Positions 1-49,223 of a stretch of 49,223 nt of DNA are shown in pieces (position 1 is the stretch's first letter; each line of letters begins with the position of its first letter). Under the pieces are notes generated by a model. That model had not been told where the DNA came from, did not search any database, and saw only the letters and a program-made list of their open reading frames with translations. The stretch lies in sequence record NC_103567.1. The stretch is one strand, 5' to 3'. The stretch is from a phage. A program made the position numbers and the translations under genes.

Positions 1-137
1 AGATTTTGTGATTGAAATTGATTTGATTTGATTAGATTTGAGTAGTGAGAGAGCAGAAATAATCACACCTTGCCGATCAGAGAAAACTTTTCCCGCAAAA
101 CATCACTCCAGGCTCCGCGCTGTTATCTTCCGTTCAT

Positions 138-235
138 GGGTGTTCACAAATCTACCCGGCGTAGTTCTCCGACGGTTCTATGTGTTAGCCACACAAAAAG
201 AACAAAATAAAACTCTATATAATAATAATTAAAAC
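138..235 (+). repeat. copy A of a duplicated ~100-bp control-region element (GGTGTTCACAA...CCGGCGTAG...ACAAAAAGAACAAA...CTATATAATA)
   Basis: Aligns by eye with 28578-28675 at roughly 75 percent identity, followed in both places by TATATA-rich then GT-rich sequence. Confidence 0.7.
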
Positions 236-522
236 AGTAAGTTATCTATATATATGTATTTATTTGTTTCTATACTGTTTCTAATGTTCCATATGGTTAG
301 TGGTGGGTGATATATTGTTGATGGTGGTATTTGGTTAATATTTAGCCTATTGCGCCTGGTCTAGTGGTGGATTGAGAAAAATATATTTATATATAGGAAT
401 CCGCGAAAATTCATGAACGCATGAACAGCCAAAGAACGCGTTTTCAATTTCAAGTAAAACATTAACTTACGCTGAAAATTTGTTCCACTATAGGTATGGA
501 ACGTAAGCACACAAAAAACTAC

Positions 523-550
523 TTGACGAGAACAAATGGCGGCGATAATA
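523..550 (+). promoter_or_regulatory. sigma70-like early promoter (TTGACG-N16-ATAATA); -10 sits in the loop of inverted repeat GGCGGCG / GCCGCC
   Basis: Near-consensus -35 and -10 with proper spacing about 40 bp upstream of the ATG at 588. Confidence 0.6.
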
Positions 551-587
551 TGCCGCCACGAACTAACCAACAGGAGGATAACCAATC

Positions 588-1040
588 ATGGCAACTACCA
601 AAGAGTTTTGCGACAGCTTGCGTGAACTGGCGAAGAAGTTAGCAAGCGGAGAGCTTGATAATTACATCATTGCCGATGCTCTTATCGAGGACAATCTCGA
701 CGAGCAAGACAGGAAGAAGGTTAACGCCTCATACATTCGCACGATCATGAATCGCGTCCCTGACGTGAAGGAGATCGGAACGGTTTCAATTACTCGCACT
801 GATCCGGTTGAGGAAGCGCCAGGGTTTAAGGTGGCAATCAACCGCGAGGCAAAGCGACAGGTATTCACAAAAAATGATATTCCGGCACTGGAAAAGAGGA
901 TCGGTGAGCGAATCGCCAAGCGACTGCTAAACACAATGCCAAATATCACGGATCTGGAAGGTGAACAACTCCAGGGCGCGGCAATCGGAATTAAGCGTTA
1001 TCAGGATCTGATTAAGTCAATGGTTGAGCAAGGGGAATAA
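588..1040 (+). CDS. hypothetical early protein, first gene of the rightward early block
   Basis: 150-aa ORF; AGGAGG about 11 nt upstream of ATG; directly downstream of the promoter at 523-550. Confidence 0.75.
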   Translation: MATTKEFCDSLRELAKKLASGELDNYIIADALIEDNLDEQDRKKVNASYIRTIMNRVPDVKEIGTVSITRTDPVEEAPGFKVAINREAKRQVFTKNDIPALEKRIGERIAKRLLNTMPNITDLEGEQLQGAAIGIKRYQDLIKSMVEQGE

Positions 1041-5552: not shown

Positions 5553-5727
5553 ATTTATTGGTTTTGTGGCATTGCTTGTGTGCGGCATATGGCTTACTGA
5601 CAATGACACTTGGCAAAGTGCTGTTGGAGGATTACTTATTTTTCTTGCTGGTGGCATGGTTGGCAGTGATGACGCAACAAATAAGAACAAACTTTCGGAT
5701 CATTTACGCAGAGAGACAAAACGATGA
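5545..5727 (+). CDS. small membrane protein (two predicted helices)
   Basis: 60-aa ORF, hydrophobic segments FIGFVALLVCGIWL and LLIFLAGGMVG. Confidence 0.5.
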   Translation: MIKFIGFVALLVCGIWLTDNDTWQSAVGGLLIFLAGGMVGSDDATNKNKLSDHLRRETKR

Positions 5728-24740: not shown

Positions 24741-27700
24741 ATGGTTAAAAATATGATAACTGGCAGTAAGGGCGGTTCATCTAAACCGCACACACCTGTT
24801 GAAATGGAAGATAACTTGATTTCAATTAACAGGATCAGAATTCTTTTAGCTGTTTCTGATGGTGAAGTTGATCCAGACTTTTCATTAAAAGATTTATATT
24901 TTGATGACGTTCCGGTTATGAATCAGGACGGGTCACTAAACTTTCAGAATGTTAAAGCCGAATTCAGACCAGGATCACAAACGCAAGATTATATTCAGGG
25001 ATTCACTGACACGGCGAGTGAGATTACTGTTGCTCGCGATCTGACGGCTGCAACTCCTTATATTATTTCCGTGACTAATAAAAACCTTTCCGCGATCCGT
25101 ATTAAAATTTTAATGCCGCGAGGGTTTACGCAGGAGGATAACGGAGATTTAACAGGCGTTCGCGTTGAATATGCTGTTGATATGGCTGTTGATGGTGCTG
25201 AATATAAAGAGGTTTTGTATGATGTAATTGAAGGTAAAACAATGAGCGGTTACGACAGAAGCCGCCGAATTGATTTACCTGCTTTCAATGAGCGTGTTTT
25301 ATTGCGCGTCCGTCGCCTGACAGATAGCACGTCAGCAAGGGTAACGGATCTGATTAAAATGCAAAGCTATGCTGAAGTTGTAGACGCTAAATTTCGTTAC
25401 CCACTGACTGGTTTAGTATATGTTGAGTTTGACAGCGAATTATTCCCTAATGCGTTGCCGAATATCAGCATTAAGAAAAAATGGAAAATCATTAATGTTC
25501 CGTCAAATTATGATCCTATTTCCCGCACTTACTCAGGGTCATGGGATGGAACCTGGAAAAAGGCATGGAGTAATAACCCTGCTTTTGTTCTGTATGATTT
25601 GATTACCAATCAGCGTTACGGACTCGATCAAAGAGAATTAGGCATCGCGCTTGATAAATGGAGCATTTACGAATGTGCGCAGTATTGCGATCAGATGGTT
25701 CCAGACGGTAAAGGCGGAACAGAGCCGCGCTATCTTTGCGACGTTGTGATCCAGAGCCAGGTAGAAGCGTATCAGCTTGTCCGTGATATTTGCTCAATCT
25801 TTCGAGGAATGAGTTTTTGGAACGGTGAAAGCCTTTCAATTGTGATCGATAAGCCGCGCGATGCGTCATACATCTTTACCAATGACAACGTGGTTAATGG
25901 TGAGTTTACTTACACGTTTGCCAGCGAGAAAAGCATGTACACGCAATGTAACGTGACTTTCGACGACGAACAAAACATGTATCAACAGGATGTTGAGGGA
26001 GTTTTCGAAACGGAGGCGGCGTTACGCTTTGGATATAACAGCACGTCAATAACTGCTATCGGTTGCACTCGACGTAGTGAGGCTAATCGCCGTGGGCGCT
26101 GGATTCTGAAAACCAACGTCAAGAGCACAACAGTAAACTTTGCTACTGGCCTGGAAGGTATGATCCCAACGGTAGGCGATGTAATTGTTGTTTCGGATAA
26201 CTTCTGGTCAAGCGCTTTGACGCTGAATCTATCAGGTCGATTGATGGAGGTTAACGGGTTGCAGGTGTTCACGCCGTTTAAGGTTGACGCAAGAGCGGGT
26301 GATCGCATTCTGGTAAATAAGCCGGATGGTAAGCCAGTTGGTCGAACCATTGCGCGTGTGAGCGATGACGGCAAAACGCTAACGCTAAACACAACGTTTG
26401 GCTTTGACGTTAAGCCGGATGCGGTTTTTGCAATTGAGCGCACAGATATAGCCCAGCAACGCTATGTAGTAACAGGAATAACTAAAGGTGATGGTGATGA
26501 AGAATTTGTATACAACATCACGGCTGTTGAATACGACGCTAACAAGTACGATGAAATTGATTATGGTGTGAACATTGATGATCGCCCTACTTCCATTGTG
26601 CAGCCTGACATTCTGCCAGCACCTGAAAACGTCAAGATCGAATCTTATTCGCGAGTTGTTCAGGGCGCGAGCGTGGAAACAATGCACGTTTCATGGGATA
26701 AAGTTGAATACGCAAGTCTGTATGAAATGCAGTGGCGAAAAGACAATGGCAACTGGAACAATACGCCGCGAACCGCGAACAAGGAAACGGAAGTTGAAGG
26801 TATTTATGCGGGTAACTATCACGTAAGGGTTAGATCTGTTGCGGCTAATGGTTCAGCGTCTGGATGGTCTGCAATAGTAAGCGCAGGATTAACCGGAAAA
26901 GTGGGAGAGCCGGAAAAGCCAATTAACCTTACAGCGTCAGATAATGAGGTTTTCGGAATTCGCGTAAAATGGGGTATGCCGGAGGGAAGCGGAGACACGG
27001 CCTATATAGAGTTGCATCAAGCGCCAAACGGTGCTGATGGTCATCCTATAGTTGACGAAGCAACGCTATTAACGCTTGTTCCGTTCCCGCAATATGAGTA
27101 TTGGCATTCAATACTGCCAGCGGGTCATGTTGTCTGGTACAAGGCAAGGGCAGTTGACAAAATCGGGAATGTGTCTGATTGGACTGACTTTGTGCGCGGC
27201 ATGGCTTCCGACGATACGAGCATTATCACGGATCATATTAAGGTCGATATTGAAAATTCTGATGGATATAAGTGGTTACAGGAAAACGCAATAAAGGCCA
27301 ATGATAAGATCCACAGCACAGCGGAATCAGTGATTGAAAACGCATTAGCGAATGATAAAGATGTGCGACGTATGCGAGTTGAAAACGGCAAGCGTAAAGC
27401 GGAGTTCTTGCAATCGCTGAAACTCATTGCAGACGAAACAGAAGCAAGGGTAACGCAGGTCACTCAAATGAGTGCGCAATTTGACGAGAAATTAACGGCT
27501 CAAAATAGCGAATTGAGAGAGGTAATTGCTAACAGCACTGAAACCATTAGCCAAAGGATTGATCAGCTTACAGCTACGTTTGAGAGCGAAATTGATGGTG
27601 TTAAGCAGGATATCAAAGCACAGATAACTGATGTTAACAAGGCAATCACCAATGAAGCGGAAGCGCGAGCGTCAGCGGATAGGGCGTTATCAACTCAAAT

Positions 27701-28517
27701 TGGTGATACCCAATCAGCGGTTAACCAGAAACTTGATTCTTGGGTTAATGCCGATAGCGTAGGCGCGATGTACGGCGTTAAGTTGGGGTTACGTTACAAC
27801 GGGCAGGAATATAGCGCTGGTATGGCTCTTTCCCTTGTTGGTGACGGATCAGGAGTTAAATCACAATTCCTGTTTGATGCTGGACGATTTGCGATCATAA
27901 ACAACCAACAGAGCGGAGGTTTTACACTACCGTTTGTTGTTGAGAATAATCAGGTGTTTATCAACAGCTTGCTTGTGAAAAATGGCTCTATTGGTAACGC
28001 TCAGATTGCGGATCAGATTAACTCTAACAACTGGAGCAGCGGCGCGGCTGGATGGATGATTAATAAGAATGGTTATGCTGAATTTAACCAGATAACGGTA
28101 AGGGGTACAGTGTACGCAAACGCCGGATCATTCACTGGTAACGTTTACGCTACTGATGGTTGGTTTAGGGGTACTGTTTACGCTGAAAAAATCGAGGGCG
28201 ACGTTGCAAAGGCTGTTGTGCTTGGGTTTAACGGATCGGTTCACATTCCGGCAGTAAACTACGACAGACACCTTGTGATTCCTTATGTTGGTTTGCATGG
28301 CTATACCTATTCAGGCGGTACGTGGGGCGGTGGTACTGTTTGGGTTGATTCATCATATGGCGGTCGCTTGGCTAACGTTCAAGCTACGGCTATGCATGGC
28401 GGTTCAAGTGGATACCTTCTGTTACCAGCGGGTAACGCAACAACGCTTTCATATGGTGGCAACCTGAACCACGCTAACGCGGTTCCAGTATTAACAATAC
28501 TGCTATTCAAAGCATAA
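24741..28517 (+). CDS. tail tip / host specificity protein (lambda J-like central fibre)
   Basis: 1258-aa ORF at the end of the tail block. Confidence 0.8.
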   Translation: MVKNMITGSKGGSSKPHTPVEMEDNLISINRIRILLAVSDGEVDPDFSLKDLYFDDVPVMNQDGSLNFQNVKAEFRPGSQTQDYIQGFTDTASEITVARDLTAATPYIISVTNKNLSAIRIKILMPRGFTQEDNGDLTGVRVEYAVDMAVDGAEYKEVLYDVIEGKTMSGYDRSRRIDLPAFNERVLLRVRRLTDSTSARVTDLIKMQSYAEVVDAKFRYPLTGLVYVEFDSELFPNALPNISIKKKWKIINVPSNYDPISRTYSGSWDGTWKKAWSNNPAFVLYDLITNQRYGLDQRELGIALDKWSIYECAQYCDQMVPDGKGGTEPRYLCDVVIQSQVEAYQLVRDICSIFRGMSFWNGESLSIVIDKPRDASYIFTNDNVVNGEFTYTFASEKSMYTQCNVTFDDEQNMYQQDVEGVFETEAALRFGYNSTSITAIGCTRRSEANRRGRWILKTNVKSTTVNFATGLEGMIPTVGDVIVVSDNFWSSALTLNLSGRLMEVNGLQVFTPFKVDARAGDRILVNKPDGKPVGRTIARVSDDGKTLTLNTTFGFDVKPDAVFAIERTDIAQQRYVVTGITKGDGDEEFVYNITAVEYDANKYDEIDYGVNIDDRPTSIVQPDILPAPENVKIESYSRVVQGASVETMHVSWDKVEYASLYEMQWRKDNGNWNNTPRTANKETEVEGIYAGNYHVRVRSVAANGSASGWSAIVSAGLTGKVGEPEKPINLTASDNEVFGIRVKWGMPEGSGDTAYIELHQAPNGADGHPIVDEATLLTLVPFPQYEYWHSILPAGHVVWYKARAVDKIGNVSDWTDFVRGMASDDTSIITDHIKVDIENSDGYKWLQENAIKANDKIHSTAESVIENALANDKDVRRMRVENGKRKAEFLQSLKLIADETEARVTQVTQMSAQFDEKLTAQNSELREVIANSTETISQRIDQLTATFESEIDGVKQDIKAQITDVNKAITNEAEARASADRALSTQIGDTQSAVNQKLDSWVNADSVGAMYGVKLGLRYNGQEYSAGMALSLVGDGSGVKSQFLFDAGRFAIINNQQSGGFTLPFVVENNQVFINSLLVKNGSIGNAQIADQINSNNWSSGAAGWMINKNGYAEFNQITVRGTVYANAGSFTGNVYATDGWFRGTVYAEKIEGDVAKAVVLGFNGSVHIPAVNYDRHLVIPYVGLHGYTYSGGTWGGGTVWVDSSYGGRLANVQATAMHGGSSGYLLLPAGNATTLSYGGNLNHANAVPVLTILLFKA

Positions 28518-28531
28518 AAGGAGGTAAATCA

Positions 28532-28570
28532 ATGCCCTGGCTTAACGGTCGGGGCATTTTGTTTTCTTTT
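28532..28570 (+). terminator. terminator-like hairpin with long loop plus T-rich tail after the J-like gene
   Basis: ATGCCC...GGGCAT stem followed by TTTTGTTTTCTTTT. Confidence 0.45.
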
Positions 28571-28577
28571 GTTCTAC

Positions 28578-28675
28578 GGTGTTCACAACTTAATCCGGCG
28601 TAGAATTGAGAACGTTATGACAACAAAAAGAACAAATTAAATATCTATATAATACATACACTTAGAGTTTAATTA
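28578..28675 (+). repeat. copy B of the duplicated ~100-bp control-region element
   Basis: Aligns with 138-235 and is followed by similar TATATA-rich and GT-rich blocks. Confidence 0.7.
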
Positions 28676-28921
28676 TTATTATATATATCTATTTGTATCC
28701 TTCTTGTTTCCATTGTTCTCTATGGTTTGTAGTGGTTGTGTGTTTTGTGTTGGTTGATGGTTATATATCACATGGTATGTATTTATATATGGTATGCGGC
28801 GTAAATGCGTGAACAATGGAACACAAAAACAACAATTAGTAAAATCATAAACTTACGATGTGATTTTGTTGTCAATGCTAGTTGTAAACGTATTCAAAAC
28901 AAAAAGAACACTTAAATGGTA

Positions 28922-28949
28922 TTGACTACATGAAACATTCACATATAAT
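28922..28949 (+). promoter_or_regulatory. strong sigma70-like early promoter (TTGACT-N16-TATAAT)
   Basis: Near-consensus hexamers about 30 bp upstream of the exonuclease gene. Confidence 0.65.
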
Positions 28950-28977
28950 GCAGACATACCAACGAGAGGATGAATAA

Positions 28978-30033
28978 ATGAGCGATTTTAAAGTTTACAC
29001 CTTTGACCAGTTAACCAACGGTGAATATCACGATCCGAAAGGCTGGGCGGCTGAATACGTTAGCGGTTCAAGCCTGGCAGAAATCTTTGCAAGTTGTCCG
29101 GCAGCGTGGAAATACAGACCACGCGAGGAAAGCAAAGCGCTTGTTTTCGGTACGCAGTCACACACAAACTTCCAGAGTAGTGAGCTATTCGCAAAAGAGT
29201 ACCGCAGAGCGCCAGCGCCGGAAGATTATGAAAACCTGATTACGAGCCAGGCAGCATTGGCAGCGAAATTAAAATCTTTTGGCCTGACTGGTACAAGCGG
29301 GAAAACGTATCCAGATCTGATTAAGATGATGGTTGATTGTGGTGAGGATCTAAATGTGCAATGGCTCATTGAAATGATCGCAGAAAGCCAGGCGCGAGCG
29401 GATAACGTTGAATTGGTTCCGGCTAAAGATTACGACGCTTGCGTTACCATGCGCCGCGTACTGGAAAGCATACCTGAACACAACGCTTGCATGAATAGCC
29501 CAACAGCACAACGCGAGCTATCAATTTTCGGAACTATCAAAGGCGTGAAAGTCAAAGTAAGGCTTGACCATGTTGATATTTGCAAAGATGTGCTTGCAAC
29601 GGTGATTTCCGGTTATGATGGTGAAGGTAATCCGGTATATGAAACAACGCGATTTGATGAAGCGATTGTGATCACGGATTATAAAACAACGTCAAGCGCT
29701 AACCCGTCAGAGTTTGCAAGGCTGGCATTCAATCACGGCTACTACTTGAAAATGGCATTGCAACATGACTTATTCAAGAAAGCGTATCCAGAAGAAACGC
29801 GCCCCGTAGTAGTCAGATTGCTGGCGCAGGAAAAGAAAGAGCCTTATTTACCGATTGCATACCGCATGACGGATGAACAATTGAAGATCGGACGACTTCA
29901 ATACATGAGCGTGATAAACCAGTTTGCAGAATGCCAGGTAAATGACGTTTGGCCTTCATACGCAAACGGAGAGCCGGAAATTGACCTTCAAACGCCTGAT
30001 TGGGTTCGTCGTCAATACAAAGGTTTTTTATAA
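28978..30033 (+). CDS. recombination exonuclease (PD-(D/E)xK, RecE/RecB-family-like)
   Basis: 351 aa; RLDHVD ... VITDYKTT fits a D...(D/E)xK nuclease core; GAGAGGA RBS; first gene of the exo-annealase-SSB module. Confidence 0.7.
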   Translation: MSDFKVYTFDQLTNGEYHDPKGWAAEYVSGSSLAEIFASCPAAWKYRPREESKALVFGTQSHTNFQSSELFAKEYRRAPAPEDYENLITSQAALAAKLKSFGLTGTSGKTYPDLIKMMVDCGEDLNVQWLIEMIAESQARADNVELVPAKDYDACVTMRRVLESIPEHNACMNSPTAQRELSIFGTIKGVKVKVRLDHVDICKDVLATVISGYDGEGNPVYETTRFDEAIVITDYKTTSSANPSEFARLAFNHGYYLKMALQHDLFKKAYPEETRPVVVRLLAQEKKEPYLPIAYRMTDEQLKIGRLQYMSVINQFAECQVNDVWPSYANGEPEIDLQTPDWVRRQYKGFL

Positions 30034-31607: not shown

Positions 31608-33980
31608 TTACTTAGCAATCTGAATAAACATTGATTGCATTTCCTCGATCATCTTTTTCATTTCTGCTACTTCATTTTTTAGCTCATTGATTTCATCTTG
31701 TTGCTTCTGAATGGTTTCATTCTGCTTATCTGAATCATCAATCATTTCATTAATTGCGTTAACCAAAAGAGCAGTTACACCGCCATAGCTAACGCCTAAA
31801 ATTTCAGAATCAGATACCTTGTAAACCGCTTCCGGCAAAACAGTCTGAACATCTTGAGCTATTACGCCAGCTTCCTCAGAGTAGAAAGAATTTTCATCTT
31901 CTTCTAGGCTATTGCGCTTAAAGTAAGTGTATCCCTTAATTGATTTAACTTTATCTTTGGCGCTTTTAATCTCCTTTAGATTTGCCTTTAGTCGAATATC
32001 AGATGTATTAACCCATTGAACAGCGCTTGCATAACCAGCATCATTAAAAGTGTATGATGTACCTCTTACGTTTAGGTGAGCTTCGCAACCTCCAGCGCCA
32101 TATCTGGCAACATCTATACCAAAAACCCAATCATAACCCCACCTTACAACCTTAACAACGTTAACGGCTACATCATCGCCTGGAAGTTCAACAAGCATAC
32201 CAGCGGCGCGATCACGCCATGCAGTAAAAGCACCACCCTCAACATGCCCACCTATAAAGCAATTCGCACCACCCCTCCTAACACCTTCAACATAAGCAAA
32301 ACGTGCATCTTCTGGAGCAAATGATTGAATAGTTCTGTATGCAACATTGCCACTCTTTGTAAATGCAAACATCACTTGATTATCAGCAATAGCTTGAAGA
32401 ATGCCATCTCCATTTTGCCTAAATCCAGTATCAGTATCTCCAATTACTATAGAGTTACTACCAAGAGCATTACCAATCCCCCTACCGATTGTTATTGAGT
32501 TGTAATTCAGCGCGTTGCCACTTTCATCAAACTGATAATAGTTTGTGTCGCCACCTTCTCTAGTTACTTGAATAGTTGCCTTTGCAATCCCACCCTGAAT
32601 TTCGTTGTAAACCCTTGAATACGAAATCTGTACTCCTTCTGCATTTTTGTTTAACAAATAAAGTATGCCGGAGTTTGCAGAGTTTTTTTCTGTTAGGCTT
32701 ATTCCTCTAAAAACAGGAATGTCAGTTTCACCAATGCCAAAATTACTCCTTGCTTGCCCTATGCTTTGAGCGCCAGTGCCTCCTCGTTCGATGTGTAATG
32801 GTTTGATGTTTCCATAATCATCTTGAACACCCCACACACCATTGTTAGCTACAAGCATATTTAGTTTTCCATCAGGTGATTTTATGGAGTTAAAATCTCC
32901 TGGTGTTTCGCTAGTAATGCAAAAAACACCTTGCACACGAAAGTTTTTTCTTGCACCTTCAATATTTTCCGCACCAGTGCCGCCAGCACCAACAGAAAGA
33001 GCGGATGTGCTGTTATCGCTATTTCTTGCAACTCGCCACTCGCCGTTGTTTGCGATCCGTAATTCATAAGTCCATGCAGGGTTACGAAATGAGTTATAAT
33101 CACCTGGATTTTGCCCCTTAACTGAATTAACAGCCTCAACTTTCAGCGCCTCCCTTGCTAAATCTTTATTAGCAAGATCATTAAGATTCTGATCCTTATG
33201 CAGAAGGTTTTCAGGGTTAACTTGTTGTGCCCATTGGCGAGCTTCATCACGCGCAGTTTCAGCTCCAGCCTTTGCAGAGTCGGCGGCAATCTTTGATTGT
33301 TCAGCGGCAAGTTGTGATTCCTTTGCTGCATCGCGAGCATTAACAGCCTCGTTTTTAATTGATCCAATTTCAGCAACGGCGCTATCTTTTATTTGTTGCG
33401 TCTGCGTTTTTATTGCGTCAGTGTCTGCCTTAATCTGATTGGTTTCATAAACAGCAGCATCCTTAATCCGTTGAGTTTCTGCAATCGCAGTATCTTTAAT
33501 TTGCGTAGTCTCAGAAACAGCGGCATCCTTAATAGCTTGCGTGTCGTTTTTTAATTGCTCAGTTGCGGCGCGATCTGCATCCGTTTTTTGTGCGGAAGAC
33601 TCAGCGCGAGCAACAAGATCCTGTAATGTTTTAAGGTCAAAGTTTTTGAAGAATTCAATTGCTTCCTCAATAACCGTTTCTTTACTTTGGTAATATCTCA
33701 GCGTTTCCGCTACATCTTGCGCCATTCCATCGACAGTTAGCGAGTCATTCAACAGGATTACATAATTTCCGTTTGCTACTGGCTCGCCGTCAGTCTGGAT
33801 CGCTTTCATTTCCGTGTCGCTTACAATATCGCTGATAACCGCCAGCTTTAAAGGCGTGGTTAAAAAAACGATTGTTGCGCCAGTGCGAATAAGAGAAAGC
33901 GGCTCACGCCATTTTGTGCCAGTACCAGTGATAACGCCTTGTGCGTCCATTGCAGCCGTACCAGTGCGATATAAAGCCAT
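31608..33980 (-). CDS. tail fibre with C-terminal intramolecular chaperone (peptidase S74-like) domain
   Basis: 790 aa; internal ~11-aa repeats (IKDAAVSETTQIKDTAIAETQRIKDAAV...); C-terminal SDIRLKANLKEI...coiled coil resembles the auto-cleaving chaperone domain. Confidence 0.7.
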   Translation of the reverse strand: MALYRTGTAAMDAQGVITGTGTKWREPLSLIRTGATIVFLTTPLKLAVISDIVSDTEMKAIQTDGEPVANGNYVILLNDSLTVDGMAQDVAETLRYYQSKETVIEEAIEFFKNFDLKTLQDLVARAESSAQKTDADRAATEQLKNDTQAIKDAAVSETTQIKDTAIAETQRIKDAAVYETNQIKADTDAIKTQTQQIKDSAVAEIGSIKNEAVNARDAAKESQLAAEQSKIAADSAKAGAETARDEARQWAQQVNPENLLHKDQNLNDLANKDLAREALKVEAVNSVKGQNPGDYNSFRNPAWTYELRIANNGEWRVARNSDNSTSALSVGAGGTGAENIEGARKNFRVQGVFCITSETPGDFNSIKSPDGKLNMLVANNGVWGVQDDYGNIKPLHIERGGTGAQSIGQARSNFGIGETDIPVFRGISLTEKNSANSGILYLLNKNAEGVQISYSRVYNEIQGGIAKATIQVTREGGDTNYYQFDESGNALNYNSITIGRGIGNALGSNSIVIGDTDTGFRQNGDGILQAIADNQVMFAFTKSGNVAYRTIQSFAPEDARFAYVEGVRRGGANCFIGGHVEGGAFTAWRDRAAGMLVELPGDDVAVNVVKVVRWGYDWVFGIDVARYGAGGCEAHLNVRGTSYTFNDAGYASAVQWVNTSDIRLKANLKEIKSAKDKVKSIKGYTYFKRNSLEEDENSFYSEEAGVIAQDVQTVLPEAVYKVSDSEILGVSYGGVTALLVNAINEMIDDSDKQNETIQKQQDEINELKNEVAEMKKMIEEMQSMFIQIAK

Positions 33981-34140: not shown

Positions 34141-35067
34141 TTATAATAAGTCACTTGCCTTGTAAAGCCTCCGCTCTATTCCATTTTTGAATTTACCGTT
34201 AATTGGTAACATTACGTCTAATTCGCGATCATCAGCAGCAATCAAAGTATCGCGATCATTAGCATGGCACACAACGCGCATTTTGCGATCACCTTTGTAG
34301 CGATACGCTACTATTTCAAGATTCGACGCAGAGAAGCAAGCCCATACTTCTTGTCCCGTAGCTAGGTGGATATGTTGCGCATCAATCCAATCAACGCAAA
34401 GGTAAATTGTTTTGTCAGTCTTGCCAGTTACCGCAACGGAGCCGCGCGTGTAATCCTTAGCGTAAAAACTGCTTTGACCTTCCTCATTGACGAAAAGAAT
34501 ATTACACATTTCATCATCCAGTTCATCGCTATGCACCAAGTGGCAAGGAATTGCGTGTATATGCTCGCAATATCCATTGTCATGAGTTTTTACTCCAACT
34601 TGATACGATTCGCCGTCTAATGGATAAAACGCCTCAAAAACGCTTAGATTTGTTATTTCCATGCGTTCAGTTTTATCCATCACCTCAACACATTTTTCAT
34701 GTGGTGCTTGCGATCCGAAATTGTAACCTGAGTCACGTTTTGCCGCTTTGTTGGCCTTGTTGACAACCTCAACCGGAACCAGGTTTAACCATTCTCCTAG
34801 AGTGTCGATTGCTTCACTGTAATTTTCACCACGTATGCGCATGAATAATCCGATCCCTGAATCATTCCCGCATTGGTTGCAAATGTTTCCGCCGTCGCCT
34901 TTCTCGTTGATTTTGTCAGTCCAACGAAAGCGATCTTTACCGCCGCAATAAGGGCAAGGCTGATGCTTTCCGTTAAAGGTTAATTGAGGAATATCGCAAA
35001 GTTTCATCAATGCCGCTTGCCACATGCCGCGCATCTTTGGGATTACTTCTTCTTTTTGATAATGCAT
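34141..35067 (-). CDS. DNA primase (zinc-ribbon plus Toprim-like)
   Basis: 308 aa; CPYCGGKDRFRW...CNQCG matches the primase zinc-ribbon pattern CPxCGGxDRF...CxxCG. Confidence 0.7.
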   Translation of the reverse strand: MHYQKEEVIPKMRGMWQAALMKLCDIPQLTFNGKHQPCPYCGGKDRFRWTDKINEKGDGGNICNQCGNDSGIGLFMRIRGENYSEAIDTLGEWLNLVPVEVVNKANKAAKRDSGYNFGSQAPHEKCVEVMDKTERMEITNLSVFEAFYPLDGESYQVGVKTHDNGYCEHIHAIPCHLVHSDELDDEMCNILFVNEEGQSSFYAKDYTRGSVAVTGKTDKTIYLCVDWIDAQHIHLATGQEVWACFSASNLEIVAYRYKGDRKMRVVCHANDRDTLIAADDRELDVMLPINGKFKNGIERRLYKASDLL

Positions 35068-35126: not shown

Positions 35127-35735
35127 TTAGCAATCAGTGCTATCGACGGAAATCACAACGCGTTTCTTCTGATTGGCTTCCTTTGCTTTGCGCCGTTCTT
35201 CTTTCGCCTTGTCTCGTTCAGCCTTGCGCCGCGCTTTCTCCTTCTCGCGTTCTTCTGGACTCATAGACCGCAACGGATCGTAAGGACGCACAAATCCTCT
35301 TGCTTCCGCTTCCTCTTTGGTTACAAATCGCATGAGCTTTCTGTTGCTGCAACGATTCTCTAATGGCTTGCCGTTGTTGTCAAAGCGCAAATCTGGACGG
35401 CAATATGAAGCGCGGAAGCCGTTAAAACCTTTGCGGCGGTAATCCTTTTGGATCAGTTCAGCGCCTTTAGCTGAAATCATGCCGCGCTCTTTCCATCCCC
35501 ACACTGTTTTAAGGTTAACGCCAATCTCACGCGCCAACGCAGCACAGCCGCCATAAGCGCTAACCACCTCATCAAGCCTCGCTTTTAATCCTGCCCTTAC
35601 TTCTTCCTTTAGTACCAGATAACCGCTAACAGGTGCGCGGCGCTTCCGGTCTTTACCACGCCTTACGCCGTTGTTACCATTGATTGTGCGTTTGTCGATT
35701 TCGCCCGTTGAGGCCGCAATTTTGATTTCGCTCAT
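35127..35735 (-). CDS. DNA-binding protein with predicted helix-turn-helix and highly basic C-terminal tail
   Basis: 202 aa; GCAALAREIGVNLKTVWGWKERG looks like an HTH; C-terminus KEKARRKAERDKAKEERRKAKEANQKK. Confidence 0.6.
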   Translation of the reverse strand: MSEIKIAASTGEIDKRTINGNNGVRRGKDRKRRAPVSGYLVLKEEVRAGLKARLDEVVSAYGGCAALAREIGVNLKTVWGWKERGMISAKGAELIQKDYRRKGFNGFRASYCRPDLRFDNNGKPLENRCSNRKLMRFVTKEEAEARGFVRPYDPLRSMSPEEREKEKARRKAERDKAKEERRKAKEANQKKRVVISVDSTDC

Positions 35736-35745
35736 ATTTTCACCT

Positions 35746-35767
35746 ATAGCACTTTTTGCTAAAAAAC
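35746..35767 (+). promoter_or_regulatory. 21-bp motif, class I variant
   Basis: TATAGCACTTTTTGCTAAAAAAC, then TGTGTATGAT -10-like element; helicase gene follows. Confidence 0.55.
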
Positions 35768-35823
35768 TTGATTAAGTTTGTGTATGATATGCCGCAAATG
35801 GCATTTAGTCAAAAGGATAAAAA

Positions 35824-43229: not shown

Positions 43230-44810
43230 TTACCCCATTAACGCCGGATTTACATAAACAAATTTACCAACGCTGCAAACATAATTCTTTTCTTCAAGCA
43301 TTGGCAATAATTGTTCCTCAATTCGTTTCATCACTCCTGATTGACCTGTAAACGGCTTAACCTTACGCGCACTTTCATAGATAGCTCTTGCATTGGTAAC
43401 GCCTTTATTTTGACGTGAGATCTTAATGATTATTTCAATTAACTTGCTCATTTCTGCATCATCTCCAGCGTGACCGGAAGCATTCGCGGCGTTGATATAT
43501 GTTTTGCTTAATTCGCTGAACATCACCAAAGCCTCTTGCATTGTCTCAACTTCAATTTCTCGCGACTTTTGCGGCGTACCGTTTGGATTAAACCAATTGC
43601 GGATCGTGTGCAATACTGACGCAATGCGGATCACTTGCTTATCCATTTTACCCAAAGCACCACGCAACATTGTATGTGAATATTTCCCGCCGTCTGCTAA
43701 ATCTGGCTCTAATTGCTGGCGAGCAATATTAAGAACACGCATTGCAGAACGTGACGGCTTCAATACCACATTTTGTTCAGTCATGATGTTATGAATCAAC
43801 TGGAAATATTGCGCCTTTAATTCTTTATCAACTGGCGTGTAATCAAGATCACCATTTTCATCAATAAATACACGCTCGCCTAACATTGTTTTTTCACGTA
43901 CAAGCAAGAAACGTTCACTAACACCGATACCACGCGCCCCTGCATCCATGATCCCTTTTATCGTTTCATCCTGGGCAATTACGCTCATGCAGCCCAACGC
44001 AACAAAACTCATATTGTTTTCAGAGTTGGCGCGAGCTATTGAAACGTGTCCGGCGTCCCATGCTTTTAGAACCAATTCGCTGTTAGTCTTGCGATCACTA
44101 TTAGCGTAAGTCAATCCGAGTAAGCTGTTGATGCTTGTTGCTTCATCGGAAATGACAGCAAAGTTACCCTGGCGATTGTTGATCTTTGCTAACCCTTCCG
44201 GCGTGGTGTCTGATACCGGAAAAACGATATCGCACATTTTTTCTAACTTTTCCTCTAATTCCTCCTTTTCCTCAAACAGCGCCGCTAACTCAGTGCCGGA
44301 ACGTTCAGCTTTCAATTCCTTTTCAACGCCTTTTAATTTCGCTGCGATCTTCTTTCGCTCTTTCTTGCGTTGTTCGTTGATGCGCTCAACTTCACAGACC
44401 ATTGGCGCAATAGCCAGGCTGTTGATTGCTGATTTACCAGTTGATGGCGGCTGACTGGTTACAACATAAAGCGCCGTTGGTTGTTCAGTGCCGTGGTACT
44501 CAACTTGGAAGCGTCCAACCATAGCGGCGGAAACGCAACCAATGAAATGCATATAGGCCGATGATTCAGGAAATTGAACAGATTGCGCAATGCTACGTGA
44601 CAGTTTACCCACAACATCAACATCATTACCCAAAGAGATCACAGGATAGCGGTCATTAGCGCCGTTGATATCCTTTACAGGTTCCCAAAAGCTGGACGAT
44701 TGGCGGTAGCCGTTAGACTGAATAGCAACGCGAAGCGGCGATGTTCCCTGCGATTCTGCAATGGCTATAACTTGTTGAGGTGTCAATTTGTTGGTGTCAA
44801 AGTCAAACAT
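43230..44810 (-). CDS. P-loop NTPase, possibly a replicative-helicase or primase-associated ATPase
   Basis: 526 aa; Walker A-like SQPPSTGKSA, charged coiled-coil stretch, Walker B-like FAVISDE; own motif-type promoter. Confidence 0.55.
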   Translation of the reverse strand: MFDFDTNKLTPQQVIAIAESQGTSPLRVAIQSNGYRQSSSFWEPVKDINGANDRYPVISLGNDVDVVGKLSRSIAQSVQFPESSAYMHFIGCVSAAMVGRFQVEYHGTEQPTALYVVTSQPPSTGKSAINSLAIAPMVCEVERINEQRKKERKKIAAKLKGVEKELKAERSGTELAALFEEKEELEEKLEKMCDIVFPVSDTTPEGLAKINNRQGNFAVISDEATSINSLLGLTYANSDRKTNSELVLKAWDAGHVSIARANSENNMSFVALGCMSVIAQDETIKGIMDAGARGIGVSERFLLVREKTMLGERVFIDENGDLDYTPVDKELKAQYFQLIHNIMTEQNVVLKPSRSAMRVLNIARQQLEPDLADGGKYSHTMLRGALGKMDKQVIRIASVLHTIRNWFNPNGTPQKSREIEVETMQEALVMFSELSKTYINAANASGHAGDDAEMSKLIEIIIKISRQNKGVTNARAIYESARKVKPFTGQSGVMKRIEEQLLPMLEEKNYVCSVGKFVYVNPALMG

Positions 44811-48724: not shown

Positions 48725-48746
48725 TTTTTTAGCAATTCGTGCTATT
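48725..48746 (-). promoter_or_regulatory. 21-bp motif, class II (reverse complement)
   Basis: TTTTTTAGCAATTCGTGCTATT on the plus strand. Confidence 0.6.
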
Positions 48747-49029
48747 AGCCAAACGCTTTAATTTCGAAATCTTCTTCTGCCTGATTAGCAACCGCCGTGA
48801 ACATTTGCTCAAGAGTTTCAAAGCCGAAATGTTTAGCGATCTCATAAGCCGCTTTACCTTCCGTCTGCATGTTTAGCGCTTCGCAATAGTGCATTTCCAG
48901 ATTGTTCAGGTATTTGTTGCCAGTTGGGATTGCTGCGTCGATTTTGTCCCACACGATCCAAAAGTTTGTTTTGTCAGCCGCTGCGAGTACAAAGTTTGTC
49001 TTGTCTACTGCAATCACTAAGTTTTCCAT
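48745..49029 (-). CDS. hypothetical protein with internal short duplication
   Basis: ORF track 48745-49065; likely start at internal ATG 49029 with GAGGA RBS; contains VIAVDKTNFVLAAADKTNFWIVW. Confidence 0.55.
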   Translation of the reverse strand: MENLVIAVDKTNFVLAAADKTNFWIVWDKIDAAIPTGNKYLNNLEMHYCEALNMQTEGKAAYEIAKHFGFETLEQMFTAVANQAEEDFEIKAFG

Positions 49030-49062
49030 CGTGTAATCCTCAGTTCGTTTCGTTGAGGTAAT

Positions 49063-49080
49063 CATAGCAATTCGTGACTG
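49063..49080 (-). promoter_or_regulatory. 21-bp motif, degenerate class II copy, in tandem with the next copy
   Basis: CATAGCAATTCGTGACTG on the plus strand. Confidence 0.4.
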
Positions 49081-49105: not shown

Positions 49106-49223
49106 CATGCAGTATCAGCAAAATTACCAACGTTCATCTTAACGAACAATCAGTTCGACGTATCGACCAGGCTCATGATCCTGTTATGTGATCGTTATAT
49201 GATCAGATGATGATTGATGTGTG

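Follow-up and report, generated by a model that had tools for sequence, protein, structure and literature searches.

The replication origins of staphylococcal pathogenicity islands (SaPIs) consist of 5-6-nt iterons that flank an AT-rich region in opposed orientation; a self-loading helicase binds them through its winged helix (PMC9371898). The Bacillus phage SPP1, a pac-type siphovirus, carries two separated elements, oriL and oriR, each combining direct repeats with an AT-rich unwinding element, and a single origin-binding protein serves both (PMC6316719). The second SPP1 copy has been proposed to stall the replication fork and to lead into recombination-dependent replication by way of an exonuclease, an annealing protein, an SSB and a resolvase (PMC6316719; PMC3485210). 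The satellite phage P4 has two cis regions, ori and crr, bound by its alpha protein, with iterons given in the P4 record as TGTTCACC or TGTTCACA at a spacing of ~10 bp. In T1-like phages, an origin has been sought and none was found (PMC11447400; PMC7718038). The literature that we searched, which did not cover the 2004 T1 genome paper, contained no mapping of a T1 origin or of T1 transcription starts, and among the papers searched on T1-like phages we found no description of the module presented here.

The stretch of DNA that we analyzed, here called the window, is the 49-kb genome (49,223 nt) of a Tlsvirus (T1-like, Drexlerviridae). It contains a non-coding module of ~430-470 bp in exactly two copies, A and B (Table 1), which are the sole matches in the window to an nhmmer profile built from 10 module copies. 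Copy A occupies a ~700-bp gap between a leftward operon, whose first gene is at 48745-49065 on the minus strand, and the first rightward gene. Copy B follows the tail-tip gene (24741-28517) and its terminator (28531-28558), and precedes recE (28978-30033). Local alignment of 121-342 with 28560-28769 yields 160 identities in 224 columns and a score of 107, compared to 22.0 +/- 2.6 (maximum 34) for 500 dinucleotide shuffles (z ~33); within the whole window, the best-scoring partner of copy B is copy A. The similarity is thus far higher than base composition gives, and all four motifs quoted in the earlier note, which had proposed a duplicated element at the two early control regions, are found in both copies. 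That note described an alignable block of ~100 bp. The block does align, but the similarity extends further and includes a second block that pairs 381-484 with 28777-28870. Recent gene conversion between the two copies was considered and rejected: copy A scores 107 against its own copy B and 100-109 against other Tlsvirus copy Bs.

Table 1. Features of the two module copies and of associated genes in the window
Feature	Position	Strand	Evidence or remark
Copy A, whole profile match	112-578	+	nhmmer E 2e-101; alignments
Copy A block I: three YGTTYN units (TGTTAT, CGTTCA, TGTTCACA), exact 10-bp phase	121-148	+	
TGTTCACA, copy A	141-148		
CCGGCGTAG, copy A, conserved CCGCAG-type block	156-164	+	conserved in relatives
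Copy A block III: ACAAAAAGAACAAA, inverted (GAAC) repeat unit left of AT-rich core	193-206	+	conserved
Copy A AT-rich core, candidate DNA-unwinding element	215-264	.	-46.8 kcal/mol, second least stable 50 bp
CTATATAATA within copy A core	215-224		
Degenerate IHF-like position, copy A core	231-245		
TATATAT run, copy A core	247-255		
Copy A block VI: TGTTTC, TGTTTC, TGTTCC, right of core, orientation opposite to block III	263-290	+	
Copy A GT-rich tract with both AGTGGTGG	291-380	+	base composition
Copy A second AT block, TATTTATATATAGG	384-397	.	fifth least stable 30-bp stretch
Copy A block IX: GCGAAAATTCATGAACGCATGAACA..AAAGAACG, three GAAC-orientation units	403-440	-	
Copy A block X: AAAACATTAACTTACG and AATTTGTT	456-484	+	exact IHF consensus here in relatives
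Copy A sigma70 early promoter, TTGACG-17-TAATAT	523-551	+	9/12 consensus positions; P01 of TLS
DUF7174 gene (gp01), first after copy A, candidate repeat binder	588-1040	+	copy A promoter
Copy B, whole profile match	28550-28976	+	nhmmer E 4e-91
Copy B block I: TGTTTT, TGTTCT, TGTTCACA (28580-28587), 10-bp phase	28560-28587	+	
CCGGCGTAG, copy B	28595-28603	+	
Copy B inner imperfect dyad	28605-28724	.	self reverse-complement alignment score 60
ACAAAAAGAACAAA, copy B	28623-28636		
Copy B AT-rich core, including CTATATAATA (28645-28654)	28638-28687	.	least stable 50 bp, -46.5 kcal/mol
Copy B second AT block, TATTTATATATGG	28780-28792	.	
Copy B block IX: GCGTAAATGCGTGAACAATGGAACA	28799-28823	-	conserved in relatives
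Copy B block X: AAAATCATAAACTTACG, then ATTTTGTT	28841-28870	+	AAAATCATAAACTTACG one mismatch from IHF consensus
Copy B sigma70 early promoter, TTGACT-16-TATAAT	28922-28949	+	11/12 consensus positions; P51 of TLS
DNA primase, related to N-terminal part of P4 alpha	34141-35067	-	BLASTP E 6e-15, alpha residues 31-262; Pfam Zn_Ribbon_Prim
DUF3987 protein, MCM-like AAA+ helicase with C-terminal winged helix (residues 450-520)	43230-44810	-	predicted fold

Each copy combines phased 5-6-nt repeats in inverted sets, the least stable DNA of the genome, two IHF positions at which the consensus is found in relatives, and a sigma70 early promoter. The two 300-bp intervals richest in YGTTC/GAACR genome-wide are copies A and B, with seven units each compared to 1.15 expected. 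In both copies, the repeat units on the two sides of the AT-rich core are oppositely oriented; the copy B core, for example, is flanked by GAAC units (28610, 28630) on one side and by GTTC units (28692-28719) on the other. The phased triplet of block I is also present in other genera, and block IX of copy A is its inverted counterpart (a weak reverse profile match of 123-162 to this block, E 6.2). The GT-rich tract differs in length among copies, and copy A has a 34-bp insertion relative to copy B. As the earlier note had observed, AGTGGTGG occurs twice in this tract, at 299 and 363, which are its sole occurrences in the window, but it is not a conserved part of the module because it is absent from copy B and from the copy A of TLS. 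Chi (GCTGGTGG), from which AGTGGTGG differs at two positions, occurs in the window once, at 5647, and in neither module.

No other 50-bp or 100-bp stretch in the 49-kb genome is less stable than the two cores, which lie nearly 5 sd from the mean (-67.5 kcal/mol per 50 bp, sd 4.3 kcal/mol). The IHF consensus WATCAANNNNTTR has no exact match in either copy of the window, where one-mismatch versions are found at ~28843-28855 and 458-470. Of 14 related lineages, 10 carry the exact consensus at two positions that are roughly constant relative to the recE start (133-141 and 312-345 nt before it), the two T1-type loci having it on the other strand; the flanking sequence, ~30 kb in all, has only one match. 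DnaA boxes (TTATNCACA) form no cluster (a single one-mismatch box in copy A at 185-193, none in copy B), and their genome-wide count is below the shuffle mean. The cumulative GC skew has its minimum at 235, within copy A. We dropped this measure as an origin marker: the skew follows transcription direction, and the minimum has no independent weight because it coincides with the switch of that direction.

The module pair is found at the same two places, before the first rightward early gene and before recE, in six other Drexlerviridae genomes, with A/B alignment z-scores of 13.7 in T1, 32 in ESCO41, 15 in Henu7, 23 in an uncultured contig and 14 in DanielBernoulli. Copy B precedes recE in 43 of the 44 Drexlerviridae loci recovered; in one locus, L058, the alignment is confined to the blocks that lie before the second AT-rich block. 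Copy A precedes the first rightward gene in TLS, DanielBernoulli, SorkZaugg/ZerotoHero, Henu7, three Hanrivervirus phages, ESCO41 and T1. The element is therefore present in relatives as a unit at both locations, and this presence, together with the alignment, supports the earlier proposal that two early operons are preceded by a common module with a role in regulation or replication. The A/B pairing rests on seven genomes because a DUF7174-based search of viral contigs gave only 3-4 copy A loci. Within Tlsvirus, copy B is 92-95% identical, compared to 87-95% for recE, and is on par with its flanking genes. Copy A is highly variable within the genus and partly degenerate in SorkZaugg/ZerotoHero, which is unexpected for an essential origin.

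The repeat unit itself differs by lineage, being GTTC in this phage and GTAAC in T1-type phages. Counting over the 450 bp upstream of recE, loci with a RecE at least 73% identical contain 1-9 GTTC/GAAC and 0-1 GTAAC/GTTAC, and at least four GTTC/GAAC are found in 22 of these 27 loci (the window included). T1-type loci contain 0-3 GTTC/GAAC, and 16 of 17 contain 6-9 GTAAC/GTTAC; the exception, L042, has one GTAAC/GTTAC and a GTAAT-type unit. Copies A and B have a unit in common in the window (13 and 8 GTTC/GAAC), in T1 (3 and 8 GTAAC/GTTAC) and in ESCO41 (5 and 9; also GTATAC and ATACGC). The units of the two copies do not match exactly in Henu7 (GTAACA in A, GTGAACA in B) or in the uncultured contig (GTCAAC in A, GGAACA in B). 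T1, TLS and ESCO41 all grow on Escherichia coli; therefore, a protein that binds the repeats is more likely to be phage-encoded than host-encoded.

Two replication proteins are predicted in the window (Table 1). The DUF3987 protein, with its predicted MCM-like fold, is presumed to be the replicative helicase that an origin would load. Of its domains, the winged helix differs most between T1 and this phage (47% identical). We considered this domain as the determinant of repeat specificity, but ESCO41, in which a TLS-like winged helix occurs together with T1-like repeat units, speaks against it. P4 alpha was rejected as a model of the binding protein, since the primase domain alone is shared.

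In comparison to SaPI origins, both module copies similarly place short opposed iterons, two or more per side, around an AT-rich region predicted to melt easily, and the phage similarly has an AAA+ helicase with a C-terminal winged helix and a separate primase, one SaPI Rep class being MCM-like (PMC9371898). In contrast, the SaPI origin is single and directly downstream of rep, whereas the module occurs twice, 14-20 kb from the helicase gene; it spans ~400 bp, contains two AT-rich blocks and is joined to a sigma70 promoter, and its repeat unit does not covary with the helicase's winged helix. The layout resembles SPP1 in its two copies with the same organization of repeats and AT-rich DNA, and in that copy B lies directly before recE, the recombinase gene and ssb. 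However, oriL is inside the initiator gene while neither module copy is inside a gene, and SPP1 uses a DnaB-type helicase and a loader. The likeness to P4 lies in a primase homologous to the alpha primase domain (E 6e-15) and possibly in two cis regions, several kb apart in P4, that have a short iteron in common. Each module copy has one exact TGTTCACA and degenerate YGTTC units in 10-bp phase, though one such 8-mer is within chance for 49 kb. Unlike P4, T1-type relatives have GTAAC units, and the MCM-like helicase has no similarity to alpha, whose SF3 helicase and Pox_D5 winged helix were not detectable in the window proteins scanned or compared (ten window proteins were scanned for Pox_D5, which was found in P4 alpha itself). 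Iteron plasmids of the mini-F RepE type offer a further parallel: their initiator gene lies beside the iterons, its promoter is itself overlapped by repeats, and both an IHF site and an AT-rich unwinding element are found; DUF7174 would be the initiator here. Unlike these plasmids, the module has no DnaA boxes, its units are far shorter than the 19-22-bp plasmid iterons, and DUF7174 is predicted to fold into one winged-helix-like domain with long helices rather than two winged helices.

We propose, with a probability of roughly 45%, that the two copies are a family-wide cis-acting module, each copy a replication-origin region joined to an immediate-early promoter; the module is the best candidate so far for the replication origins of this phage family. 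Counting for an origin are the inverted repeats around an AT-rich core, its extreme meltability, the constraint on non-coding DNA and the precedents for paired elements, in a phage with an MCM-like helicase and a P4-alpha-like primase and in a family without a known origin. Counting against it, the module is not beside the helicase gene, in contrast to SaPI origins; the helicase winged helix does not track the unit, and A and B do not always have the exact unit in common; DnaA boxes are not enriched, and the IHF positions in the window are one-mismatch only.

The proposed origin would operate as follows. Once the DNA enters the cell, host RNA polymerase would fire both early promoters. An early phage protein, for which the winged-helix-like DUF7174 encoded directly after copy A is the best candidate, would then bind the phased, opposed YGTTC/GAACR sets that flank the TATATA cores. 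Binding would melt the two cores, possibly aided by IHF bending and nearby transcription, and the MCM-like helicase and P4-alpha-like primase would be loaded there, with recruitment of host DNA polymerase III. Units in or beside the promoters would simultaneously turn off early transcription. For the second copy, three roles are conceivable: another origin, a cis enhancer comparable to P4 crr, or a barrier that is bound in the manner of SPP1 oriR.

The same region is also quite possibly a purely transcriptional control region, although the odds are somewhat against it. The ~400 bp before each immediate-early promoter would then be an array of operators and enhancers, in which AT-rich, bendable DNA and IHF strengthen the promoter by contacts of the UP type or by opening driven by supercoiling. 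An early phage protein, such as DUF7174 as a Cro-like repressor or autorepressor, would use the repeats as operators and switch both early promoters off (or on) jointly, and replication would start elsewhere or by recombination. Both copies have the same orientation and a near-equal distance to a sigma70 promoter, and their alignment reaches that promoter; these observations count against an origin and are exactly what a purely transcriptional region predicts. The near-consensus promoter that the earlier note placed after each copy is found in both cases and corresponds to P01 and P51 of phage TLS, for which only three sigma70 promoters are predicted in all; support for these promoters comes from conservation and the TLS annotation because sites of this kind are no more numerous in the region than in shuffles. 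One GAACA unit (530-534) falls between the two hexamers of the copy A promoter, and a second (28906-28910) precedes the copy B -35 by 11 bp; in copy A of T1, GTGTAACAC extends over part of the -10 region. Transcription from the copy A promoter always reaches the DUF7174 gene first or second. The copy B promoter drives recE, an erf-like recombinase gene and ssb. In relatives, an exact IHF consensus lies ~95 bp upstream of the -35. However, the third early promoter (~35770-35800, minus strand) is without such a module; early promoters in general thus do not require it. Inverted iterons at the two most meltable sites, 250-300 bp upstream, also exceed the known upstream needs of a promoter, and the family has no other origin candidate.

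A more specific form of the origin reading, fairly unlikely in our view, joins both functions in a coupled switch that would be new for a classical T phage. DUF7174 would bind both sites, stop immediate-early transcription and open the cores for the MCM-like helicase, and copy B would be a second origin or a fork barrier. T1 is known for recombination-dependent concatemer synthesis, and a barrier at copy B would turn early circle-type replication into synthesis of this kind.

It is improbable that the module instead encodes an RNA, either an ncRNA or a long GU-rich leader starting from the -10-like CTATATAATA, with a regulatory or priming role. A TATAAT-like hexamer is kept across the family (variants TATAAT, TACTAT and TAAAAT), and a strong strand asymmetry follows it, with 6-11% C in the next 100 nt. 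Yet CTATATAATA has no -35 partner, a promoter scan gave no plus-strand promoter there, no terminator was found ahead of the known promoter, and an Rfam search gave no match. U-rich transcripts form weak RNA-DNA hybrids, and a transcript of this region would be U-rich. RNAalifold on nine sequences found 0 conserved pairs, and copy A folds with nearly the energy of shuffled sequences (z -0.7), copy B with a modestly lower one (z -1.8, -2.9). Because of these folding results, we also rejected a hairpin, a cruciform or a structured RNA from the inner dyad, and read the dyad symmetry as inverted protein sites.

Hardly credible, and already largely refuted by conservation, is a packaging, recombination or RecBCD site (a secondary pac or hotspots resembling Chi) or a neutral leftover from an old duplication: copy A does lie ~120 bp from the mapped pac end of TLS and its GT-rich tract contains TGGTGG three times besides the two AGTGGTGG, but TLS is reported to give a single series of pac fragments, GATT-rich repeats of the pac kind are absent from copy B, the Chi-like motif is confined as described above, and coding-level conservation with a coordinated change of the repeat unit excludes a neutral remnant.

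The seven classical T phages include T1, and T1-like phages are both frequent contaminants in laboratories and fermentations and candidates for therapy. Their host-type promoters are few, and their control is unexplained in the literature searched (PMC11447400, PMC7718038). The module supplies two precise, conserved candidate sites and two candidate proteins, DUF7174 and the MCM-like helicase. Its lineage-specific units could account for modular exchange of the early region, and are relevant to engineering T1-like phages. Should the two copies prove to be origins, the phage would be a bacterial virus in which an MCM-like helicase is loaded at unwinding elements flanked by iterons, and a useful model for self-loading helicases; if they are operators, the modules would define the early-to-middle switch of the family.

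The window carries exactly two copies of a non-coding module, copy A and copy B, each ~430-470 bp long and reaching a promoter, because the alignments and a profile built from ten copies match 112-578 (E 2e-101) and 28550-28976 (E 4e-91) only; a search of the window with this profile gave no match beyond the two. The local alignment of 121-342 with 28560-28769 has 160 identities in 224 columns and a score of 107, against 22.0 ± 2.6 for 500 dinucleotide shuffles, and the similarity is therefore far above chance for this composition. The best match to copy B is copy A, with the rest of the window far poorer. The earlier note had described a shared block of ~100 bp with a sigma70 promoter behind each copy: the sharing and both promoters are borne out, and every motif quoted occurs at both sites, but the block is longer than claimed, as a second aligned block (381-484 with 28777-28870) and the profile matches show. 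It had also counted AGTGGTGG twice in copy A, which is correct (299 and 363, its only occurrences in the window), but the motif is not conserved, being missing from copy B and from copy A of phage TLS. Relative to copy B, copy A has three insertions, of 9 bp (165-173), 34 bp (343-377) and 11 bp (~441-451), and the second AGTGGTGG sits in the 34-bp one.

Block order is identical in the two copies, at an offset of 28385-28439 bp, and the inner module forms an imperfect dyad centred on an AT-rich core (self reverse-complement score 60, copy B). The two copies are the genome's richest 300-bp windows in YGTTC/GAACR repeat units, with seven each compared with 1.15 expected. Their cores hold the least stable 50-bp duplexes of the genome, at 215-264 (-46.8 kcal/mol) and 28638-28687 (-46.5 kcal/mol), the next lowest being -54.1 and the genome mean -67.5 (sd 4.3) kcal/mol; the two least stable 100-bp stretches likewise lie there.

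Positions of the module blocks, promoters, repeats and genes
Feature	Position	Strand	Description
Block 1	121-148; 28560-28587		three YGTTYN units, exact 10-bp phase, last is TGTTCACA
Block 2			CCGGCGTAG, both copies
Block 3			ACAAAAAGAACAAA, both copies
Block 4			CTATATAATA then TATATAT run, both copies
Block 5	263-290; 28692-28719		TGTTTC/TGTTCC units
Block 6			GT-rich tract of variable length, both copies
Block 7			second TATATA block, both copies
Block 8	403-427; 28799-28823		GCG.AAAT.C.TGAAC...GAACA, block 1 inverted
Block 9			AAA(A)TCAT.AACTTACG then ATTTTGTT, both copies
Block 10			A-rich stretch and one further GAACA, then promoter, both copies
Copy A promoter	523-551		TTGACG-17-TAATAT; corresponds to P01 of TLS
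Copy B promoter	28922-28949		TTGACT-16-TATAAT; corresponds to P51 of TLS
First gene of leftward operon, beside copy A	48745-49065	-
First rightward gene, beside copy A	588-1040	+	Pfam DUF7174
Tail-tip gene, upstream of copy B	24741-28517
Terminator of tail-tip gene	28531-28558
recE, downstream of copy B	28978-30033
Primase	34141-35067	-	homologous to primase part of P4 alpha
202-aa helix-turn-helix regulator	35127-35735	-	expressed from third sigma70 promoter; 58% identity in T1
22-nt repeat	1619-1642, 2454, 3969, 5101, 6488, 30031, 35743, 38201, 39525	+
22-nt repeat	42697, 45542, 46956, 47908, 48726, 49084	-

Judged by its sequence, the window is a complete Tlsvirus genome (Drexlerviridae, T1-like), because its first 1.2 kb share 98% identity with Citrobacter phage Stevie, and its start base is that of the TLS record. 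Copy A occupies part of the ~700 bp that separate two operons; after recE come an erf-like recombinase gene and ssb. For TLS, the pac end is at position 1, only three sigma70 promoters were predicted (P01, P51 and P57), eighteen 21-nt repeats were listed without an assigned role, and no replication origin was reported (PMC11447400). GATT-rich short repeats at 49190-49223 and 1-124 adjoin the mapped pac end, and bases 1-124 are ~97% identical to Salmonella/Escherichia phages whose following 450 bp are unrelated, which points to a packaging signal that is conserved on its own and to an abrupt mosaic boundary at ~124. Within a probable lateral tail fibre gene of 790 aa (31608-33980, -), a repeat of 33-nt period occurs in three copies (33430-33545).

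The module is retained at both locations in relatives, a check that the earlier note had asked for. Across more than 50 Tlsvirus records copy B shows 93-98% identity, and in other genera it can still be recognised at 65-68%; inside the genus its conservation equals that of recE and exceeds that of the tail-tip gene's 3' end. Among 44 recE loci collected by a RecE search of viral contigs, 43 keep the module upstream of recE in the same block order, T1-type phages included; the exception, L058, aligns only over the blocks that precede the second AT-rich block. Copy A is much more variable (alignment scores to the window's copy A of 280 in TLS, 81 in DanielBernoulli and 50 in SorkZaugg), and is present in every genome examined: TLS, DanielBernoulli, SorkZaugg/ZerotoHero, Henu7, three Hanrivervirus phages, ESCO41 and T1. 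The pairing of A with B was compared in seven genomes, and the within-genome similarity is significant in T1 (z 13.7), ESCO41 (z 32), Henu7 (z 15), an uncultured contig (z 23) and DanielBernoulli (z 14); T1 copy A was also recovered by a T1-type copy B profile (E 5e-8). GenBank records named 'Streptococcus phage MBBL140' (copy B at 93% identity) and several 'Campylobacter phage A1xx' are 74-93% identical to parts of the window; probably either the hosts are misnamed or these records are contaminants.

Which repeat unit the module uses depends on the lineage. We counted units in the 450 bp upstream of recE, grouping loci by RecE identity to the window. Loci at ≥73% identity have 1-9 GTTC/GAAC (at least four in 22 of 27, window included) and 0-1 GTAAC/GTTAC. 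T1-type loci (63-69%) have 0-3 GTTC/GAAC and, in 16 of 17, 6-9 GTAAC/GTTAC versus a background of 0.2-1.0; the remaining locus, L042, has one, its unit being GTAAT-type. The switch affects all blocks jointly, and copies A and B share their unit in three genomes: the window (GTTC/GAAC, 13 in A and 8 in B), T1 (GTAAC/GTTAC, 3 and 8) and ESCO41 (GTAAC/GTTAC, 5 and 9; GTATAC, 2 and 3; ATACGC, 2 and 4, the latter two motifs being scarce elsewhere). Constant across lineages are the TATAAT-like block, the CCGCAG block, the promoter and two IHF-consensus (WATCAANNNNTTR) positions. In 10 of 14 lineages the consensus is matched exactly at 133-141 nt and 312-345 nt before the recE start, in the two T1-type loci on the opposite strand, compared with a single exact match in ~30 kb of flanking sequence; the window's own positions are one-mismatch versions.

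Because T1, TLS and ESCO41 have E. coli as a common host, the units are more likely read by a phage protein than by a host protein. The winged helix of the MCM-like helicase is its most divergent part between T1 and the window (47% identity), but would not be an obvious determinant of unit specificity, because ESCO41 combines a TLS-like winged helix with T1-like units. The predicted structure of DUF7174 comprises a winged-helix-like N-terminal domain, which differs strongly between lineages, and two long C-terminal helices, which remain similar even in ESCO41. Its most conserved helix appears to vary with the copy A unit: SYIRTIMNR accompanies (G/A)TGAAC, SYMRQVVNR GTCAAC and SHIRTTMAR GTAACA, with SYIYNTAAR in ESCO41 and SFITPIVSR in T1. 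This match is no more than suggestive, since the gene and its element move together in a single cassette and the units of copy B sometimes differ. The 202-aa regulator more likely reads the 21-nt repeats than the lineage-specific units, since T1 retains these repeats.

The 22-nt repeat AAATAGCACnnnTTGyTAAAAC, already listed unexplained in TLS (PMC11447400), precedes many genes, always in the orientation of transcription, with an inverted core TAGCA..TGCTA and a -10-like hexamer ~22 nt downstream. Its appearance is that of a dimeric-activator site, with the 202-aa protein as a possible activator. The third sigma70 promoter (-; 35736-35823 region), in the 88-bp divergent gap between the regulator and SF2 helicase genes, overlaps an oppositely facing 22-nt repeat, a possible autoregulatory arrangement.

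Rfam has no family for the module, RNAalifold on nine sequences found no conserved base pairs, and, as single strands, copy A folds about as well as shuffled sequence and copy B only modestly better. The module shows no enrichment of DnaA boxes and contains no Chi. GC skew was discarded as evidence on origins, since it tracks transcription direction.

The layout matches iteron-type origins: short opposed repeats around a meltable AT-rich core, an adjacent promoter, a lineage-specific unit and candidate sites for a host bending protein. The closest published description is that of the SaPI origin, which a self-loading helicase recognises through its winged helix; one class of these helicases is MCM-like (PMC9371898). 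Paired elements are also known in SPP1, where a single protein binds both oriL and oriR, which are organised alike, and where oriR is proposed to block forks and so set off recombination-dependent replication (PMC6316719, PMC3485210), and in P4 (ori and crr), whose units TGTTCACC or TGTTCACA happen to equal the module's best unit. From this layout, these parallels and the statements of two papers that they found no origin in T1-like phages (PMC11447400; PMC7718038), we rank first the reading that the pair are putative replication origins fused to early promoters, with a probability of roughly 0.45.

The main rival, to which we give a real but lesser chance, is an array of operators and enhancers with a purely transcriptional role. 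Both copies keep a fixed orientation and distance relative to their promoters, and units lie inside or beside the promoters, as an array of operators would have it; however, the third early promoter has no module, and the complexity and meltability sit 250-300 bp upstream of the promoter. The putative origin pair and the operator array are compatible readings rather than exclusive ones. In iteron plasmids, as in RepE-type systems, the initiator as a rule also acts as repressor of the promoter of its own gene.
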